This document shows positions 1 through 8,761 of a stretch of 14,378 nucleotides of DNA, in pieces; the first letter of the stretch is position 1; each line of letters begins with the position of its first letter. Source of the stretch: a virus. Lineage: Duplodnaviria > Heunggongvirae > Uroviricota > Caudoviricetes. The DNA is taken from the IMG/VR virus record IMGVR_UViG_2706794664_000003; one strand, written 5' to 3'. A program made the translations under genes and the position numbers. Under the pieces are notes generated by a model, which did not search any database, was not told the origin of the DNA, and was given only the letters and a program-made list of their open reading frames with translations.

Positions 1-59
1 CCGGAAACAAGTGAGCGTTTCCGGATTCTTACACAGCCACTGGATCGGTCAACTGATCC

Positions 60-1216
60 TTAACTGATCGGCATTACACCACCGGGACGCGGATTCATAT
101 CTTCCAGGTCGCGGCAGTCATTGGAAGAGTAAATTCCCCAGTTGATCCCGGTGGCGTAGGCTTCAAAACGGGACTTCATATCCCCGCGCAGTAACGCCCC
201 GGCGTTAAATTTGGCGTAATAAACGCCCTGCTTACTTTTTCGTACCAGTCCGGTGTTGATCCGCTGTTCGATGCGGGTCAGATACGGCACCAGTGAATAG
301 TTGATAAATCCCAGCCCCAGCTCTTCGATATTGTTGAAGGTGGCGCGATCGGTGTTCTGCACCATGTGCAACGGCACCCGGAACAGACGACAGATTTCTT
401 CCAGCTGAAACTTGCGGGTTTCCAGGAACTGACTGTCCTCGGCGTTCAGCGCCATCGACTTCCAGTCCAGCCCCATTTCCAGAATCATCGGGCGGTGAGC
501 ATTGCCAAGCCCCGTGTGACACTCCTCAAAATCTTTCTTCAGACGCTCGTAAGCATCCGGCGTGAGCTTTTGTTCCGTACGCAACACACCGGATGTCACC
601 GCACCATTACTAAACAACCTGGCACCGTGCTCCTCGGTTGCCGCTGCCAGTGAAATGGCCTCACGCGCATACGCAATGGGATTCAGCCCGACAAGTCCAT
701 CCAGCGTCAGGGTGCGCACATGCCAGATTTCATTCTGGGTCAACACATCCACGGAACCATCCGGAAACGTCACCTGATAAACCGGCTGCCACTGGCTGTT
801 CAGCTTCGGTTCCACACAGCCCGGATCTATCGGAAGAAGCTCCACCACTTCTCCCAGTGCCTTTACCTTGTAGGCGTAAAAATTCCCCCGTAGACACAGG
901 CAGACAATAACCAGCTCCCAGAATTCCTGCGGTGTCATGTAGCCATTAGGTTTTGCCGAAACCAACTTATGCAGTCGTTCATCCACCGCCCGTGTTTTCA
1001 GGGTACCGCTGATTTTGTAGAGACTGCAGGGCAGCATACCAACAGACTCTGCCAGCACCCTGACGCAAGAATAGACCGCCGTCAGGCGCATGGCCCGCTG
1101 GCTACTGATCCGCTTTCCGGTATAGGTGTCGTATGACAGCCCGATAGCATCAGCAGTTCTGCTGGCGTGGTCACCGGCACATCGCTTTTTCGTTGAAATA
1201 ATCCCGAAAAGAACAC
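60..1216 (-). CDS. phage portal protein (HK97 family), reading frame interrupted near the N-terminus
   Basis: The 60..1307 ORF carries portal-like sequence from about residue 60 on (AMRLTAVYSCVRVLAESVGMLP...). Its first ~60 residues are Cys/Arg/Trp-rich and overlap the upstream small ORF; that start is TTG. A GTG at 1216-1214 sits 6 nt after a GGAGG (1227-1223), overlaps the upstream TAG (TAGTG) and opens a 44-codon frame ([26 protein letters not shown]...) that stops at 1084-1082. Joining the two frames needs one extra base somewhere in about 1100-1145. Confidence 0.7.
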
Positions 1217-1398
1217 TATTTACCTCCGCCGACAGACTGCCGTGTACGGTCGAGATATCGCGCCACCAGCCACGACCAGAACAGGCACAGCGCCCCGGCA
1301 ACAACAAAACCCGCCGGGGGATAAATCAGCCAGGCACCATACGCCAGCAAAAGCGCACCCAGCACGCCCACCAGAGGCGCGAGAATCAGCATGATCAT
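1216..1398 (-). CDS. small hydrophobic protein (two predicted transmembrane segments) between terminase and portal
   Basis: 60-aa [66 protein letters not shown] at 1398 is preceded by GAGGT and lies 11 nt after the terminase stop; its stop overlaps the proposed portal GTG. Confidence 0.5.
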
Positions 1399-1409
1399 AA
1401 TTACCTCAG

Positions 1410-3143
1410 TTAAAGCGAGCGGATCCCGTAGGACTCAATGTGGTCAGACAGCGTGTCTTCTTTCTCGTACAGCATGGCTCTGCCAACCGCCATAATCAGC
1501 GCAACTGCACCATCGATTTTGTTTTCCGCCTGCTCTTTGACGGGTTTCACCACATCATCGTTACCCGGCATGTTTTTGCCGACCACGTTGCCGATACACC
1601 AGGTCATGATGGGATTGCCGTCATGATGAAAACGTCCCGATTCAATCGCTGCTTCCAGCTCTTTCATCGGATCGGACATATTGGTGAAGTTCTGGACGAT
1701 AGTGACGGGATTCAGGTCTTCATCAGCAAGGTCATGTGACAACCCGGTCGCCCCGAAGGGGTCGATGGGTGACTCACTGACCGGGCTGATTTTGTTCGCC
1801 GCTTTGGCCTCCTCGAGGATGTAGCGATAATCCACCTCCGCACCATCGGTAACGGTCAGAACGCCCATTTCCACCCATTTCTGAAAGCGTTCGGCTGTCC
1901 GTCGATCTTCATTTTTCTCGACGCTGTACACCGTGTCATACGGTACCCAGAAACGCGGGGCCACACTGTAGTAATGCGTTTTACCGTCAATCTCGCGGGT
2001 ATAAAGTCGCGCCATGCTGTTCATATCCAGCTTACGCGCCAGGTCAAAGGCCAGAATGCACGGCTGCCCCTCGAACTGCTCAAGGGTCAGTGATTTATCC
2101 TCGCAGCTCTGCCAGCTCACCAAGTTGAAATACGCCGAACGCGCCGACACCCAGATATTGAGGTGTTTTGTTTTAAAGACGTTTGCCAGACGGGCGTTAT
2201 TTTTCGCACGCTGCTGCTGACTTAACAAAAATTCGCGATAAACCGACACGCCAATATTTGGATTGGCTTTTTCCAGCACCTGCGGGCCGGTCCAGTCGTC
2301 ACCTTCATCAACGGTATAGATGATCCCGAACAGTTCATCGTTAGGCACCGAGCCGTTGAGCATCTCGATGACTTCCCGCCGCTTGTCGTAGCACGGCCCC
2401 TCAATGTTGTACCCGGCGGTGGTGATGGCCCACATCAGTGGCTGACGTCGCGCCCCCATCCCGGTAAGCATTGTGGTATAAAGCGCATCGGTGGCATGCT
2501 CGTGATATTCATCAACCACGGCACAGTGGGGTGATGAACCATCACCTGGGTTGCCGATCAGCGGTTCAAACCGCGCGCCATCCTCCGGACGGTTCATGTT
2601 TGAGGCGTTAACCTCAATCCCGAACGCTTCCGTCAGCATGGGTGTGCGTTTACACATCAGTCGCGCCGGGCGAAAGACTTCCCACGCCTGTTTCTCTGTC
2701 GTGGCACCGGAATACACTTCCGCGCCAAACTCGTTATCACAGGCAAAACAATACAGGGCAACACCGGCAGAGATTGCTGATTTGCCGTTCTTACGGGGGA
2801 TTTCGGTGTACACCTCCCGGAAGCGGCGCAACCGGGTGCCTTTATTGACCCAGCCAAACGCACAGCAGATCACAAATAGCTGCCACGGCTCCAGCGTGAT
2901 GGGCATCCGTTTGAATGCCCACTCCCCCTTGGTGTGCGGCAACAGCTGAATAAATTTCGCGGCCCGTTCAGCCAGGTCCTTGTCGAAGCGGTAACGAAAC
3001 GACTTACTTTTTTCCGCCATCAGGTCATCAAGATGGCGCTGGCAGGCCTGAATCACAAACTGGCAGGCAACAATCTTTCCGCGCACGACATCCCGGGCAT
3101 ACTGATTTGCAGCATTTACGTTGGGGTAAGATTTCCGGCTCAT
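1410..3143 (-). CDS. terL: terminase large subunit
   Basis: 577-aa intact ORF; position after the small subunit and before the portal; ATG at 3143-3141 overlaps the upstream TGA (ATGA). Family call is from overall resemblance to phage large terminases. Confidence 0.85.
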
Positions 3144-3561
3144 GATTCGATAATTTTCAGAAACGGGTTAGTGGCTTTCTTCTGCCCCGCCAGGCCAATC
3201 AGACGCTGGCGGCTGCTGGGGTCGAGTCCGAGCATTGCCCCCGTGCTGCTCATCTCGGACTCCTGTTCTTTTTTGGCGGTCAGCTCCGGATTTTTGACCC
3301 TGCCGCCCATTGCACCGGTGATGGTGTTGCCCTGTATGGCAATATTTTTCACGGCACGTCGCCAGAACTCATAGGCCACGCACCACCGCTCAAGTACCGC
3401 CAGGTCAGTCACGCACAGCAGGCCCTGACCGCAGAGTTCTTTGGTTGTCAGTTGCCACATGATCGTGGCGAGAGGGAGATCTTCTTCAGCGAACCACTCT
3501 GGTGGCTCAACACCTTTGATGGGCGTAAAAACAGGTTCATCTTTGTTCAGGGCTCGCTTGC
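3140..3561 (-). CDS. terminase small subunit (P27-family-like), 5' end lost in assembly gap
   Basis: Readable part starts at the gap edge with [23 protein letters not shown]..., resembling the N-terminal region of P27-type small terminases; stop overlaps the terL start. Confidence 0.65.
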
Positions 3562-3674
3562 NNNNNNNNNNNNNNNNNNNNNNNNNNNNNNNNNNNNNNN
3601 NNNNNNNNNNNNNNNNNNNNNNNNNNNNNNNNNNNNNNNNNNNNNNNNNNNNNNNNNNNNNNNNNNNNNNNNNN
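3562..3674. other. assembly gap (113 N)
   Basis: Run of n characters; frames cannot be carried across it. Confidence 1.
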
Positions 3675-3966
3675 GGTTGCTGTCTGCGTCTGTTCCGCCA
3701 TGCGCTTTCGGGATGATGTGGTCGACGGTTTTCGCCTCGCTCACCACACCGACACGCAGACACAACTGACACAGACCTTTATCGCGCTTCAGAATACGGG
3801 CACGAATCACCGTCCATTTTGAGCCATAGCCACGCTGGTGGCGGCTCAGTCCGCGCTGGTGCTGCACCCAGCCTTCACCGCGATGTTTATCGCAGTAACC
3901 CGAACTGTCTGTGGTTGTACCTGCACATCCACGCTTACGGCAGGCACGTGGGATTAGTGATGGCAT
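3675..3966 (-). CDS. HNH endonuclease (terminase-associated), 3' end lost in assembly gap
   Basis: ATG at 3966 preceded by GAGGT; Cys-rich N-terminus (CRKRGC...CDKH) and DHIIPKAHGGTDADSN motif typical of HNH nucleases; sits immediately upstream of the small terminase. Confidence 0.75.
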
Positions 3967-4008
3967 AAATACCTCATACCCTGCGAAATGTTTACCACGA
4001 TAAAAAGG

Positions 4009-4473
4009 CTACTTAATGCACTGAGTGCGGATATACTCCTGTGCCCCTTCCAGTTGCATCTGCATCGTCATCAGCCGCTCTCTGAGGGTGAAATAATCCC
4101 GTTCAGCGGTGTCTGCCAGTCGGGGGCTGGTTGCATTATCCACGCCGGAGGCGGTGGTGGCTTCACGCACTGACTGACAGACTGCTTTGATGTGCAACCG
4201 ACGACGACCAGCGGCAACATCAGCGCGCAGAGTTTCATTTTCAGCTTTCGCATCAGCTAACTCCTTCGTGTATTTAGCATCGAGTGCATTAACATCACGC
4301 TGTCTCTGCTGCATGTCAGTAATGGTTGCGTTCGCCAGCTTCAGTTCTCTTGCGTTTTTGTCGCGCTGCTCTTTGTAGGTAATGGCGTTATCACGGTAAT
4401 GATTAACAGCCCATGACAGGCGGACGATGATGCAGATAACCAGAGCGGAGATAATCGCGGTGACTCTGCTCAT
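4009..4473 (-). CDS. Rz: i-spanin Rz
   Basis: [34 protein letters not shown]... closely matches lambda Rz as recalled; start taken at the second in-frame ATG (4473), overlapping the endolysin TGA (ATGA). Confidence 0.85.
4071..4253 (-). CDS. Rz1: o-spanin Rz1 (lipoprotein) embedded in Rz in the +1 frame
   Basis: 60-aa [55 protein letters not shown]... with lipobox LVVVGC and a proline run; fully inside Rz. Confidence 0.8.
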
Positions 4474-4967
4474 TGCTGCCCCCACAAACAGACTTCACGC
4501 TCAATCTCACGACGGGTCATCAGCCCTTTCCATTGCTTACCGCCAGCATATGTCCAGCGACATAGCTGGTCACATGCGCCTTTGATATAGCCCTGGTTTA
4601 TTTTGCGAAGAAGCGTCGATGTTCTGAAATTGCCAGCGCCCACGTTGTAAACGAACGAGTAAAGAGCGCCGCGCGTTGTTTCCGGTATATCGACTTTGAT
4701 GTACGGGTTAATTTGTCTGGCGACAGTGGCAAGGTCTTTATTCAGGAGGGCTTTGCATTCTGCTTCGGTATACGTTTTACCGAGCATGATGTCTTTTCCG
4801 GTGTGTCCGTGACATACAGTCCATACACCAATGATATCTTTGTATGGTATGTAGCTGACACCTTCCAGACCATCGTTACCACCTGGGCCAGTGATTAACA
4901 CAGATGCTATAGCAACAGCCCCACCACCAATAGCAGCTGCAACAGCCTTGCGTAATGATGGCGACAT
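4470..4967 (-). CDS. R: SAR endolysin (phage lysozyme, P21 R-like)
   Basis: 165 aa; N-terminal Gly/Ala-rich weakly hydrophobic segment ([20 protein letters not shown]) typical of signal-anchor-release endolysins; closely resembles P21 lysozyme as recalled. Confidence 0.85.
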
Positions 4968-5182
4968 TATTCACCTCTCGCAGCCTTACGCTTGTCTTCT
5001 CTTATTTTGAAATACAGATTTGTCAGATAAGTCAGAAGCCCCAGAAGCAGACTTCCCAGCACACCAATCGCAGCCCACTGTGATGGACTGACCTGATCCA
5101 ACCACTGCAAAAACCAGTAGCCGGCACTGCCGGCGGAGGTGCCGTAGGCAATGCCTGTTGATATTTTTTCCATCTGATACAT
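4967..5182 (-). CDS. S: pinholin (P21 S-like) with dual-start motif
   Basis: 71 aa [30 protein letters not shown]...; two in-frame Met (1 and 4); two hydrophobic segments; stop overlaps the endolysin start (TAATG). Confidence 0.85.
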
Positions 5183-5213
5183 ATCCCGCCCCCCGACAGA
5201 CCTGTGCTATCGG

Positions 5214-5248
5214 AAAGAAAAAAGGCCATCAGCAAAACTCTGATGGCC
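5214..5248 (-). terminator. intrinsic terminator candidate 30 nt upstream of the holin start
   Basis: 9-bp stem GGCCATCAG/CTGATGGCC (5224-5232 / 5240-5248) with 7-nt loop, followed on the minus strand by TTTTTTCTTTCC. Confidence 0.5.
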
Positions 5249-5862
5249 TGAATCACCTTTACCAATATTGTATGAAAAAACACGCACGACTAATTGACAA
5301 TAATTTTCATTTCCATTAAAAAAGATCGCGTAGCATTCTTAATTCATGAGGAACTTTACCCGCCAGCAATCTGAGTAGCGAAAGCTGTTCATCCCCAATG
5401 TTTTTGCTGGCGGGTCCTTTTTTCTACGGTCCTCCTCCCCGGAGGGGGGCATTTCATTATTTTTCTAATCGTTACTGGTGAGAAGGCGGAAGAAAAAGCC
5501 AGTTCTTCGCCCCTAAATAACAGCATGATTCCAGTCCATGCAAAATCTGATTTCCAGCTCACACATACCGAGCGCTGTACAAAAAACCGCCAGCCAAGGC
5601 AGTTAAGAGTGTGTTCCCGGGGTTTGCTTAGAATATTTTGTAAGTTGTCCGAAGAGATATTTACAACACCAGAATGATGAATCATCAGTCCCCTGCCAGA
5701 GGTTCACTACGTAACCTGACCGACAATGCACCATTCTGGTGCTGAAAAAAGAGCACTGGAACTGCAACAAAACAACATCACAGAACAGGAGATGGTAAGG
5801 AGTCAGACATTCCCACACAATATTGTGTCAGTGCAAATAACAACCTTCGTCTCAAATCTCGC

Positions 5863-5937
<75 letters not shown>

Positions 5938-5940
5938 ATA

Positions 5941-6016
<76 letters not shown>

Positions 6017-6018
6017 GC

Positions 6019-6095
6019 TGGCCCACCACCGAGGACTCGAACCTCGCACCGTCAACTTAGAAGGTTGATGCTCTATCCGGATGAGCTAGTGGTGG
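6019..6095 (-). tRNA. tRNA-Arg (anticodon TCT)
   Basis: 77 nt; acceptor CCACCAC/GTGGTGG, anticodon stem TCAAC/GTTGA, loop CTTCTAA, T stem CGAGG/CCTCG, CCA. Confidence 0.8.
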
Positions 6096-6096
6096 T

Positions 6097-6173
6097 TGGT
6101 GGCCCTTGCTGGACTTGAACCAGCGACCTGGCGATTATGAGTCGCTCGCTCTGACCAACTGAGCTAAAGGGCC
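6097..6173 (-). tRNA. tRNA with CAT anticodon (Ile2-type or Met)
   Basis: 77 nt; acceptor GGCCCTT/AAGGGCC, anticodon loop CTCATAA, T stem GCTGG/CCAGC, CCA; resembles E. coli ileX-type tRNA as recalled; first anticodon-stem pair is A-C. Confidence 0.65.
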
Positions 6174-6261
6174 GGAGGCAGAATAATAACCATATGTCAT
6201 CACATCTGCAAACTCATCTGACCACCAGCACGTTTAACGTCCTGTGCCGTTTTTCAGGTAT

Positions 6262-6283
6262 AAAAAAACCCGCATAAAGCGGG
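6262..6283 (-). terminator. intrinsic terminator candidate between the Q-like gene and the tRNA cluster
   Basis: Hairpin CCCGC-loop-GCGGG (6269-6283) followed on the minus strand by seven T (6268-6262), about 80 nt after the Q-like stop. Confidence 0.55.
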
Positions 6284-6362
6284 CTCTTTCAAATGTCCAT
6301 GTCTGCTATTCGCCTCGCGGTACAGCTTTGCGAAGCGTACAAGAATTGAAGCAGTTTTTACG

Positions 6363-6917
6363 TCAAAAAGCAATAACTTTTTTCTCTATACCAAAAGCCA
6401 TAACCATTGGTTTGTACAAAATAAATTCTGCCACCTTTAGCCAATGCTCAATGCGTCTTTCACAGGTTCTTAAACTCCATTTCGGGTGTGCATCATTCAG
6501 CAGTTCAGCCATTTTGCGTTTGGTCATCCCCCGCCCCTCATACCGTTGCCGAAGGACGCTAATCAATCCTGGATGCTCTGCCAGCACCTCACTTATGACC
6601 CGATCAATACATAACGCCTCTGCATCAGTACAATGCGCCAGCCAGCTCTTTTGCTTACCGTTAATCATATCCCGCAAAAAAGCCTCAAGTTCAGACTTGT
6701 TCAGACCTGCTTTTTTCATCCTCCGGAGCGCCTCGTTAATTGCCGTTTTTGTCAGCTTTTTAGAGGTCAACATCAGGTTAAACATATTCCCCGTCTTACC
6801 GCCACCAATATACGACCAGCGCCCCCACATACGTAGTTTTCCCTGAATCCAGACACTTTCCAGCGTGGTGAGACGAAGGTGTTCTCCGCTTTTTCCTGTA
6901 TTCGTTGGGTAAATCAT
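6363..6917 (-). CDS. putative late-gene antiterminator (Q-like)
   Basis: 184 aa from the ATG at 6917 (AGGAGG 7 nt upstream; ATGA overlap with the ybcO-like stop). Call rests mainly on position, last gene before the terminator/tRNA/lysis block; family resemblance is only a loose impression. Confidence 0.45.
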   Translation of the reverse strand: MIYPTNTGKSGEHLRLTTLESVWIQGKLRMWGRWSYIGGGKTGNMFNLMLTSKKLTKTAINEALRRMKKAGLNKSELEAFLRDMINGKQKSWLAHCTDAEALCIDRVISEVLAEHPGLISVLRQRYEGRGMTKRKMAELLNDAHPKWSLRTCERRIEHWLKVAEFILYKPMVMAFGIEKKVIAF

Positions 6918-7204
6918 AAATATCCCTCCTTTCTCCAGATTTCTTGTGTGCGAAAAACACCTTCTGCATGCATCAGGCGTAATTCTTCTTTGGTGTAATC
7001 GCTGGTTTTTACCCGCCCGTCGATTAAATCGTGGCACGAGCTACAGGCAATCGCTGCCTGCATATCGTGTGGCTTTATCGCTGTTCCGCACGTTCCCGCC
7101 AGTCGGTAATGCGCCAGCACAGACGTTTCCGGATCGTGATTGCAGTAGCCAGGAATTCTGACGGTGCACATCTGCCCCCGCGCCGCTTTACGTAAATCCA
7201 CCAT
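6914..7204 (-). CDS. ybcO: YbcO-like protein (DUF1364, putative zinc-binding nuclease)
   Basis: 96 aa MVDLRKAARGQMCTVRIPGYCNHDPETSVLAHYRLAGTCG...ACSSCHD resembles DLP12 YbcO as recalled; conserved Cys/His pattern. Confidence 0.7.
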   Translation of the reverse strand: MVDLRKAARGQMCTVRIPGYCNHDPETSVLAHYRLAGTCGTAIKPHDMQAAIACSSCHDLIDGRVKTSDYTKEELRLMHAEGVFRTQEIWRKEGYL

Positions 7205-7803
7205 TACGCAAACTCCAGCAGCTGCGCGGCCACATTTTCGACTTGTTCCGGAGAGGAAAATTTACGGAACAGAATCCAGTTCCACAGCACATTCAGAACA
7301 GATTTATAAACCTGCTGAAACTCGGTTTCGTCCATATTCGCAAACGCGATAGATTTCGCCCGACACCCACGGCTACCGTCCGGATAAAAATGCTCGGTGT
7401 AAAATCCGGCCTGAATGGCTACCCACTCGCGGAAAGCCTCAAACGACTTTAGCAATGCCGTATCACTGGTTCTGCGTGTCGCAACTGTATTCAGATATTG
7501 CTCTGCGGCTTCGCTCAGAGCTGGCGTATGTTCCCGGCCTACTGATTCACACAGGTAATCAACGAAACCGGACACCAGTTTTCGTTCGCGAGGCGTGATC
7601 GCCCCACCGACCGGAGTCCAGTAATCGAAACCCAGTTGCAGGAGTTTGAAAAAACGCTTGTGGAATGCGTAGTTACACACACGCTTAAAGTCTGCGTGTA
7701 TCCACTCACCTATTTTGATTTGATGCAGAAAATCGCAACTCTCCGGCGTCGCCGGGAGAAGTAATCCGGAAGAGGTTTGTTTGACCAGTTGTATATGTGC
7801 CAT
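7204..7803 (-). CDS. nin-region protein, possibly DUF1367 family
   Basis: 199 aa from the ATG at 7803 (GGAGA upstream); the longer ORF begins with TTG at 7845. Adjacent to the ybcO-like gene, as DUF1367/DUF1364 pairs usually are. Confidence 0.4.
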   Translation of the reverse strand: MAHIQLVKQTSSGLLLPATPESCDFLHQIKIGEWIHADFKRVCNYAFHKRFFKLLQLGFDYWTPVGGAITPRERKLVSGFVDYLCESVGREHTPALSEAAEQYLNTVATRRTSDTALLKSFEAFREWVAIQAGFYTEHFYPDGSRGCRAKSIAFANMDETEFQQVYKSVLNVLWNWILFRKFSSPEQVENVAAQLLEFA

Positions 7804-7841
7804 CGGCTTTCTCCGGTGGCACGGTGTTACACAGCAGGAGT

Positions 7842-8129
7842 TCAATCCTGCTCAAGATTGTAGATGAGTTTATTCTTCAGCAAAAGCAGAAAACCAGCCT
7901 TAAAACCAATCTCTTTCAAAACCCGTAATGATGTGACAAATTCGTCCTCACGCAAAATAAAACCGTCCGTCAGAAGTCCATTACAAAAATAAAATAACAC
8001 AGCACCGCTCTTCCTTTGTTGAGATTGCAAACATCTAATGCGGCAATGGCTGACAATCGCTCCATTCTCAACGCGCACAGCATAGAGGCCATTTTCACTA
8101 AAAATTTCACGCAATTCTTCGATTTTCAT
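7842..8129 (-). CDS. hypothetical protein on an AT-rich segment
   Basis: 95-aa ORF MKIEELREIFSENGLYAVRVENGAIVSHCRIRC... with GGAAGGA upstream of the ATG; surrounding DNA is visibly AT-richer than flanking phage genes. Confidence 0.4.
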   Translation of the reverse strand: MKIEELREIFSENGLYAVRVENGAIVSHCRIRCLQSQQRKSGAVLFYFCNGLLTDGFILREDEFVTSLRVLKEIGFKAGFLLLLKNKLIYNLEQD

Positions 8130-8250
8130 CTTCAGAATCCTTCCAGATAAATAGCTCTCCCCTGTTCGGGGTCCATCCCTCTTCTCCCTGCGCGCTACTT
8201 AAGTGAGTCGATTCTATCTGCGAAGGTGCGCGAATCAAATTCACCGGAAA

Positions 8251-8303
8251 TAAACAACAAAAAACCCGCCGAAACGCTGAGAGATCACAGCGATGGGCGG
8301 GTT
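8251..8303 (-). terminator. intrinsic terminator candidate downstream of hok
   Basis: Two-tier hairpin (outer 8263-8270 / 8296-8303, inner CGCTG/CAGCG) followed on the minus strand by TTTTGTTGTTT. Confidence 0.45.
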
Positions 8304-8378
8304 AAGTGCGGGTGCGTTGAGGATGCCTGACACATCAGAGGTGGGCGGGGATGGGATCAGCTCCCCGCCCGGTCACTC

Positions 8379-8534
8379 TTACTTCCTGGATTCGTAGTCT
8401 ACGAAGACAGCGACCTCCGTCTGGCCGGTTCGGATTCGTACCTCACAGAGGTCTTTCCTCGTTACCAGTGCCGTCACTATGACGGTTAAACAGATGACGA
8501 TCAGGGCGATTAACATCGCCTTTTGCTGCTTCAT
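8379..8534 (-). CDS. hok: Hok/Gef-family type I toxin
   Basis: 51 aa MKQQKAMLIALIVICLTVIVTALVTRKDLCEVRIRTGQTEVAVFVDYESRK; single transmembrane helix and conserved CEVRIRTGQTEVA motif; near-identical to Hok/Gef toxins as recalled. Confidence 0.8.
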   Translation of the reverse strand: MKQQKAMLIALIVICLTVIVTALVTRKDLCEVRIRTGQTEVAVFVDYESRK

Positions 8535-8591
8535 AGCCTGCTTCTCCTTGCCTTTCGGCATGTAAGAGGCTAACCTACATGTGCAAAGCAT
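8379..8591 (-). CDS. mok: mok-like reading frame (in-frame upstream extension of hok)
   Basis: 70-aa ORF from the ATG at 8591 continuing in frame into hok, the arrangement recalled for chromosomal mok/hok loci. Confidence 0.5.
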   Translation of the reverse strand: MLCTCRLASYMPKGKEKQAMKQQKAMLIALIVICLTVIVTALVTRKDLCEVRIRTGQTEVAVFVDYESRK

Positions 8592-8761
8592 GAAATTGGC
8601 CTCAGATTAATGTTAAGCGTCTTGCCGGACGCGTAATGTTAACTGGGGCTTTTCTCTATCTGCCTTTTGGTGTTCATGCCTGAAGCAGATAGCCTCAAGC
8701 ACCCGCAGTCATTCTACTTACCTCGCCAATATGAAATCAATCAGAAAGGTGCCCCATAAAA

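Follow-up and report, generated by a model that had tools for sequence, protein, structure and literature searches.

The phage nearest to the locus reported here is the Stx2e phage phiP27. Its genes are arranged in the order HNH endonuclease, cos, small terminase, large terminase, the membrane protein L37 and the portal protein L38 (NP_543090.1), and the GTG start codon of the portal gene overlaps the stop codon of the gene for L37, a membrane protein of 60 residues. Among the analogues described, beeE (b1151) of the cryptic prophage e14 in Escherichia coli K-12 comes nearest, a dead gene fragment of the same portal family that follows ymfR. In the part of the study of Shigella genome decay on which we draw (Hawkey et al. 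2020, PMC7373316), IS4 is one of five insertion sequence families that have expanded in Shigella, and at least 5% of the coding sequences are described as pseudogenised through insertion sequences, nonsense mutations or frameshift indels, with fixation within lineages being possible. Prophage regions resembling phiP27 have been reported in genomes of Shigella sonnei (PMC5447701, PMC6128377).

The DNA analysed in this study is a stretch of 14,378 nucleotides from a virus of the Caudoviricetes (IMG/VR record IMGVR_UViG_2706794664_000003), and we refer to this whole stretch as the window. At one of its ends, the window shows the same gene order as phiP27. On the minus strand, an HNH endonuclease gene (3966-3547) heads the order and is followed by a P27-type small terminase gene, a large terminase gene, a ymfR-like gene and the portal gene. 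The large terminase gene (1410..3143) is intact and encodes 577 residues, the length of the annotated E. coli homolog, with the Pfam domains TerL_ATPase and TerL_nuclease. The start region of the small terminase gene lies under a mask of 113 N bases at 3562-3674, between the HNH and small terminase genes, and the annotated cos of phiP27 falls in the same interval. The ymfR-like gene (1216..1398, minus strand) is an intact gene for a small membrane protein of 60 residues; the same gene precedes the portal gene in phiP27 (L37), in E. coli prophages and in e14 of K-12, and its exact sequence carries the name 'protein YmfR [Shigella sonnei]'.

The TAG stop codon of the ymfR-like gene (1218-1216) shares its last base with the GTG start codon of the portal gene (1216-1214), forming TAGTG, and a Shine-Dalgarno sequence GGAGG (1223..1227) is located six bases 5' of this GTG, all on the minus strand. 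The original prediction had drawn attention to this well-spaced GGAGG and to the coupling with the upstream stop, and both are present at the positions just given. It had also held that the frame opened by the GTG begins like a portal protein and that a longer reading frame opened by a TTG does not, and the portal starts of phiP27, the E. coli prophages and e14 agree with this view. Every base in the arrangement of stop codon, GTG and Shine-Dalgarno sequence is matched in phiP27, in three E. coli prophages and in e14 of K-12, where this arrangement is annotated as the portal start; the GTG is the annotated start in all intact relatives, and GGAGG is invariant in two DNA alignments (A1 and A2) of the window with these relatives. 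The conservation of this layout in five relatives indicates that the arrangement at the portal start is more than a product of chance. In the E. coli prophages, which are approximately 89-94% identical to this stretch, ymfR is followed by a coding sequence for a 413-residue 'phage portal protein' that opens on the last base of the ymfR stop codon, and no E. coli genome exceeded 94% identity over the portal gene. For this reason an origin of the window outside S. sonnei was considered, and it was dismissed because S. sonnei chromosomes match at 100%. The junction between ymfR and the portal gene, and the N-terminus encoded there, are the same in e14 as in the window.

The observation that the start and the body of the portal gene lie in separate frames, both on the minus strand, is real. 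From the GTG at 1216-1214, the window encodes codons 1-21 of the portal gene in the ancestral frame (1154..1216), with an N-terminal motif conserved in 104 full-length homologs. After the site of a one-base deletion (1153..1154), the GTG frame runs on as an out-of-frame tail (LMLSGCHTTPIPESGSVASGPCA, 1082..1153), in which nothing conserved is encoded, and terminates at the TGA at 1084-1082. The GTG frame is 44 codons long, as had been predicted; the start coordinate of 1084 given with that prediction marks where the stop codon opens, and this codon extends to 1082. The 44-residue product had no Pfam match, and no called gene with exactly this sequence is on record. The ancestral portal codons 22-338 occupy 77..1153 and, seen from the GTG, have moved into the -1 frame. 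The same -1 frame holds the long ORF, which runs mechanically from a TTG (1305..1307) to a TAA (62-60), encodes 415 residues and contains the Phage_portal domain at its residues 77-403. The TTG lies within the ymfR-like gene, and the first 30 or so residues of the long ORF, rich in Cys, Arg and Trp, are the ymfR-like gene read in another frame. No called gene on record corresponds exactly to the 415-residue product, and the database search found the TTG extension in no homolog, including the 104 full-length ones. The GTG is the true ancestral portal start, and the TTG extension is spurious.

Compared with its intact relatives, the window is short of exactly one G at 1154/1153, where CTGGCT has become CTGCT. 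That is, the ancestral sequence GAA CTG GCT GAT GCT reads GAACTGCTGATGCT in the window. In alignments A1 and A2, all five intact relatives (phiP27, the three E. coli prophages and K-12 e14) have one more base in the same column, and the only gap is that between GAACT-GCTGATGCT in the window and GAGCTGGCGGA(G/T)GCT in the relatives. The original prediction was right that one added base would join the two frames; the alignments move the site from the interval 1100-1145, where it had been placed, to 1154/1153. When the G is restored, GAA CTG GCT GAT GCT encodes ELADA, as in BeeE of K-12, and the neighbouring differences from the relatives are synonymous or conservative. In a scan of metagenome contigs, one contig (L042) was found that reads exactly GAACTGGCTGATGCT, with the missing G present, which means that the inferred ancestral sequence occurs in nature. 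This contig (ERZ1026846 NODE-968, positions 9308-9348) belongs to a phage or prophage that is 82% identical overall and carries the local synonymous variants of the window plus the G, which suggests that short portal segments are exchanged in a mosaic fashion among these phages. In the GTDB species-representative genomes, the junction had no match either with or without the extra base.

We then consider the protein that the joined frames would encode. Over residues 1-380, the repaired protein shares 97.1% identity with the phiP27 portal and approximately 91% with those of SfIV, SfI and ST64B, in each case in one frame. The match of the long ORF to Phage_portal (PF04860) scores 358.8 bits against a cutoff of 39.1 (profile positions 2-321 of 321, E=3.3e-107; the domain lies in the part encoded by 77..1153), and the match of the repaired protein to TIGR01537 (portal_HK97) scores 263.7 bits against a cutoff of 112.05 (profile positions 3-343 of 343). 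The alignment to HK97-family portals that the original prediction had proposed as a check thus runs in a single frame and passes the family model. A database search with the repaired protein returned hundreds of full-length portals at 100% query coverage. All 104 full-length homologs, which have 395-420 residues in one frame, are ungapped across the join, and the motif MFF.G.F...PVTTPAELA...GL(S/T)YDTYTGK is continuous in them; none starts at the internal ATG at 1091 or has the TTG 1307 extension. Compared with the gene of E. coli A36, the repaired gene shows 46 synonymous and 8 nonsynonymous codon differences, with a synonymous bias before the join (4 to 1, in codons 1-21) as well as just after it (2 to 1). 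This bias indicates that both pieces evolved under selection in the joined frame. Taken together, one added base joins both frames into a canonical HK97-family portal. The gene as it stands is not the single frame of about 400-415 codons seen in the family, being shifted at codon 22 and truncated at codon 338. The usual order of terminase, portal, prohead protease and major capsid protein is likewise incomplete: the two terminase genes are upstream, but the protease and capsid genes are absent. The portal gene of the window accordingly descends from the HK97 portal family but has ceased to belong to a working module. For a gene that is truncated and has no capsid gene beside it, assembly into a dodecameric ring at one capsid vertex is a moot point.

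The original prediction had explained the missing base as an under-called one, that is, an error of assembly or base calling in a genome that really has an intact portal 5' end. Single-base deletions are indeed a common type of error, and such errors exist in these very data. Three Shigella sonnei assemblies (L010, GCA_040188945.1; L014, GCA_052712815.1; L016, GCA_040188935.1) show 2-3 scattered one-base gaps against the window, which leave their small and large terminase genes in pieces. These gaps have the appearance of real base-calling errors and can be used as a positive control. The portal junction is free of them. Its 161 bp, deletion included, are identical in all ten independent S. 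sonnei assemblies compared, the three error-prone ones among them, and the remaining seven are 100% identical to the window over 3561 bases. From the deletion follows a 343-residue product, which gene callers start at the internal ATG (1089..1091, minus strand; the ancestral Met43). At least 1000 contigs, in 1695 blocks of the assembly collection, carry this product; the 24 blocks with the longest contigs were read, so that rare isolates with an intact allele could lie among the rest. All named members of this cluster among those listed are labelled S. sonnei, and these names served to identify the organism. Partial forms from draft contigs share this internal Met as their first residue or begin further downstream at another Met. 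The deleted base belonged to a GG dinucleotide rather than to a homopolymer run, and no homopolymer in the overlap zone exceeds A5.

Systematic under-calling in the window was considered and rejected: against FDAARGOS_944, which is 99.3% identical, the indels are few, and in both of the homopolymer runs that differ, the window is longer and not shorter. The correctness of the sequence was judged here by agreement among assemblies rather than by read pile-ups. On these grounds the explanation by an under-called base is already largely refuted, and we consider it very improbable. The frame is intact and conserved in the relatives, and the lesion is reproduced across independent assemblies of the same lineage, as is the case for a real pseudogene.

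The two frames might still be joined in vivo by programmed -1 ribosomal frameshifting or by transcriptional slippage, so that the full N-terminus would still be made. At any point from 1216 to 1085, a -1 shift would be enough to join the two open frames, and a stretch A_AAA_AG is present at 1190-1186. However, no heptamer of the type X_XXY_YYZ is found in this overlap zone (1216 to 1085), which contains no run beyond A5, and a shift at the A-run would swap out 12 conserved residues. All intact relatives have the same A5 run and use one frame, and the arrangement in two frames is not conserved. Even a portal protein restored in this way would lack its last 75 codons and all of its partner genes. 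We reject this possibility as extremely improbable.

The loss of the last 75 codons is due to a second lesion, which the original prediction had missed. The first 76 bases of the window (1..76) match the ends of IS4 in E. coli genomes; that is, window 76-1 is the terminal part of an IS4 inserted after codon 338 of the portal gene. At the boundary, GGTGGTG of the portal gene is followed directly by TAATGCCGATCAGTTAAGG of the IS4 terminal repeat, and homology to intact portals ends at window 77. IS4 provides the codons for VMPIS and the TAA stop codon (62-60), and the portal sequence accordingly ends in NPRPGG followed by VMPIS. As a result, the gene is cut after codon 338 of 413, and five IS4-derived residues stand in place of the lost 75. 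In complete S. sonnei chromosomes, IS4 runs on from the edge of the window and is split by a second insertion sequence, and its far end abuts the host gene bamE. Within 10 kb beyond IS4 in these chromosomes, no portal 3' end and no protease, capsid or tail gene was found, which indicates that the whole morphogenesis module downstream of portal codon 338 has been lost from the prophage. Every S. sonnei assembly read here carries the deletion as well as the IS4 lesion.

It may also be asked whether the ATG at 1091 is a legitimate start, giving a functional, N-terminally shortened portal-like protein that interferes, for example, with related incoming phages. Such a protein would keep nearly the whole core covered by the Pfam and TIGR01537 profiles, which begin at about residue 39-45 of the ancestral protein, and its sequence is uniform over very many isolates. 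On the other hand, no full-length homolog uses this start, no good Shine-Dalgarno sequence precedes it, and the C-terminal 75 residues are replaced by the IS4-derived ones; the uniformity would be expected anyway in a young clonal species. Taken comprehensively, we judge this reading to be very unlikely, at about the level of the under-called base. An extension of the same idea is that the remnant has been kept as a defence, the fragment from ATG 1091 acting as a decoy that poisons head assembly or packaging of incoming phages of the phiP27, SfI or SfIV type. This is based solely on the intactness of the genes and site from HNH through cos and the small terminase to the large terminase and on the uniformity of the allele, both of which are expected in a young clonal species, and we give it equally little credence.

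We therefore think, with high confidence, that the locus is the 5' part of a doubly inactivated HK97-family portal pseudogene in the remnant of a phiP27-like S. sonnei prophage, and that the sequence is correct as given. The lesion in the 5' part is the loss of one G of the GG at codon 22 (window 1154/1153). From the GTG, ribosomes would read 21 correct codons and 23 wrong ones and would halt at the TGA, yielding the 44-residue peptide, and translation from the ATG at 1091 would give a protein without either end of the portal. The 3' lesion combines the insertion of IS4 after codon 338 with the loss of all downstream head and tail genes. It seems probable that no functional portal protein is made and that the lesions represent neutral decay.

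The original prediction had grouped the portal gene with two other interrupted genes of the window as signs of under-calling, and neither of these supports that view. The YdaT-like gene (12502-12081, minus strand) is one base short at 12465 compared with FDAARGOS_944 (GGGC-AACAG in the window, GGGCTAACAG in FDAARGOS_944), which causes a frameshift at about codon 13 in a non-homopolymer context. The exact 101-residue fragment is found in 1969 blocks, including those of S. sonnei 53G and S. flexneri 8401; this lesion is a real, older allele shared between the two species. In the replication initiator gene (YdaU-like, 11341-12003), which contains a poly-Glu tract, the frame changes near 11480-11550. 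Compared with FDAARGOS_944, this gene is rearranged over a short patch (11544-11550), and its T-run at 11686 has 9 bases instead of 6; S. sonnei 53G also has a shortened ORF, of 224 residues, at the initiator locus. The 3' end of the initiator gene and the start of ydaV are under a mask of 252 N bases (11037-11288), where relatives have 242 bases.

Several further features were observed in the rest of the window. Compared with complete S. sonnei chromosomes, the window combines two prophage remnants of this species in a mosaic: positions 1-6273 match a remnant adjacent to bamE (99.9-100% identity), positions 6103-14378 match a remnant between modC and ybhA (99.5-99.98%), and the 171 bp shared by both mark the crossover at 6103-6273. 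In GCA_040188895.1, the one assembly in which both remnants were located, they are about 2 Mb apart; in the remaining complete chromosomes that were sampled, the 10-kb flank of the portal gene contains another early region. The mosaic arose either by recombination between the remnants in the source strain or because the contig is chimeric across the short repeat. The portal junction is unaffected by this join, being located 5 kb within the portion of the window that shows 100% identity to complete genomes.

Two genomes labelled E. coli, FDAARGOS_944 (L005, NZ_CP065613.1) and FDAARGOS_943 (H26, NZ_CP065615.1), carry a 99.3%-identical copy of 4223-14290 at ybhA-modC, which in FDAARGOS_943 contains insertions of IS600 and IS1A. 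Both the YdaT gene and the initiator gene of FDAARGOS_944 are intact, and its late module differs from that of the window, being a terminase module of the PBSX type. At window 5444, a G-run has 6 bases compared with 5 in FDAARGOS_944 (CCTCCCCGGAGGGGGGCATTT); the sequence at this position, which separates the lysis genes from those for late regulation, resembles a stem-loop or terminator. A piece of about 290 bp (13562-13857) matches several places per S. sonnei locus and adjoins transposase genes of the IS3 family, and it looks like the end or a fragment of an insertion sequence inside the early region.

These results, whose value is chiefly that of a negative finding, mean that the sequence of the window can be trusted at the portal junction, and that the frameshift should neither be 'repaired' nor be cited as a sign of poor assembly quality. 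They also illustrate that agreement across assemblies can tell real pseudogenes from base-calling errors without recourse to reads. Public annotation already lists the gene for S. sonnei, under the names 'portal protein' or 'phage portal protein, partial'. Prophage decay in S. sonnei is well known; the present analysis documents one more pair of lesions of this kind, made up of an indel and an insertion of IS4, and pins the ancestor of the remnant to a phiP27-like phage.

In comparison with the known systems, the locus is an ordinary one, typical of Shigella genome decay. In phiP27, the extra G is present and the 413-residue portal gene is followed by the protease, capsid and tail genes, whereas the window has the deletion and the IS4 cut and lacks a downstream module. 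The beeE gene of e14 is dead for another reason: its frame is preserved across the join, and a different lesion cuts it short after about 135 codons, whereas the S. sonnei gene is damaged at codons 22 and 338. Of the routes of decay described for Shigella in PMC7373316, a frameshift indel and an IS4 insertion both occur at this locus; that study, in the part on which we draw, deals with the whole gene complement and does not single out this prophage gene.
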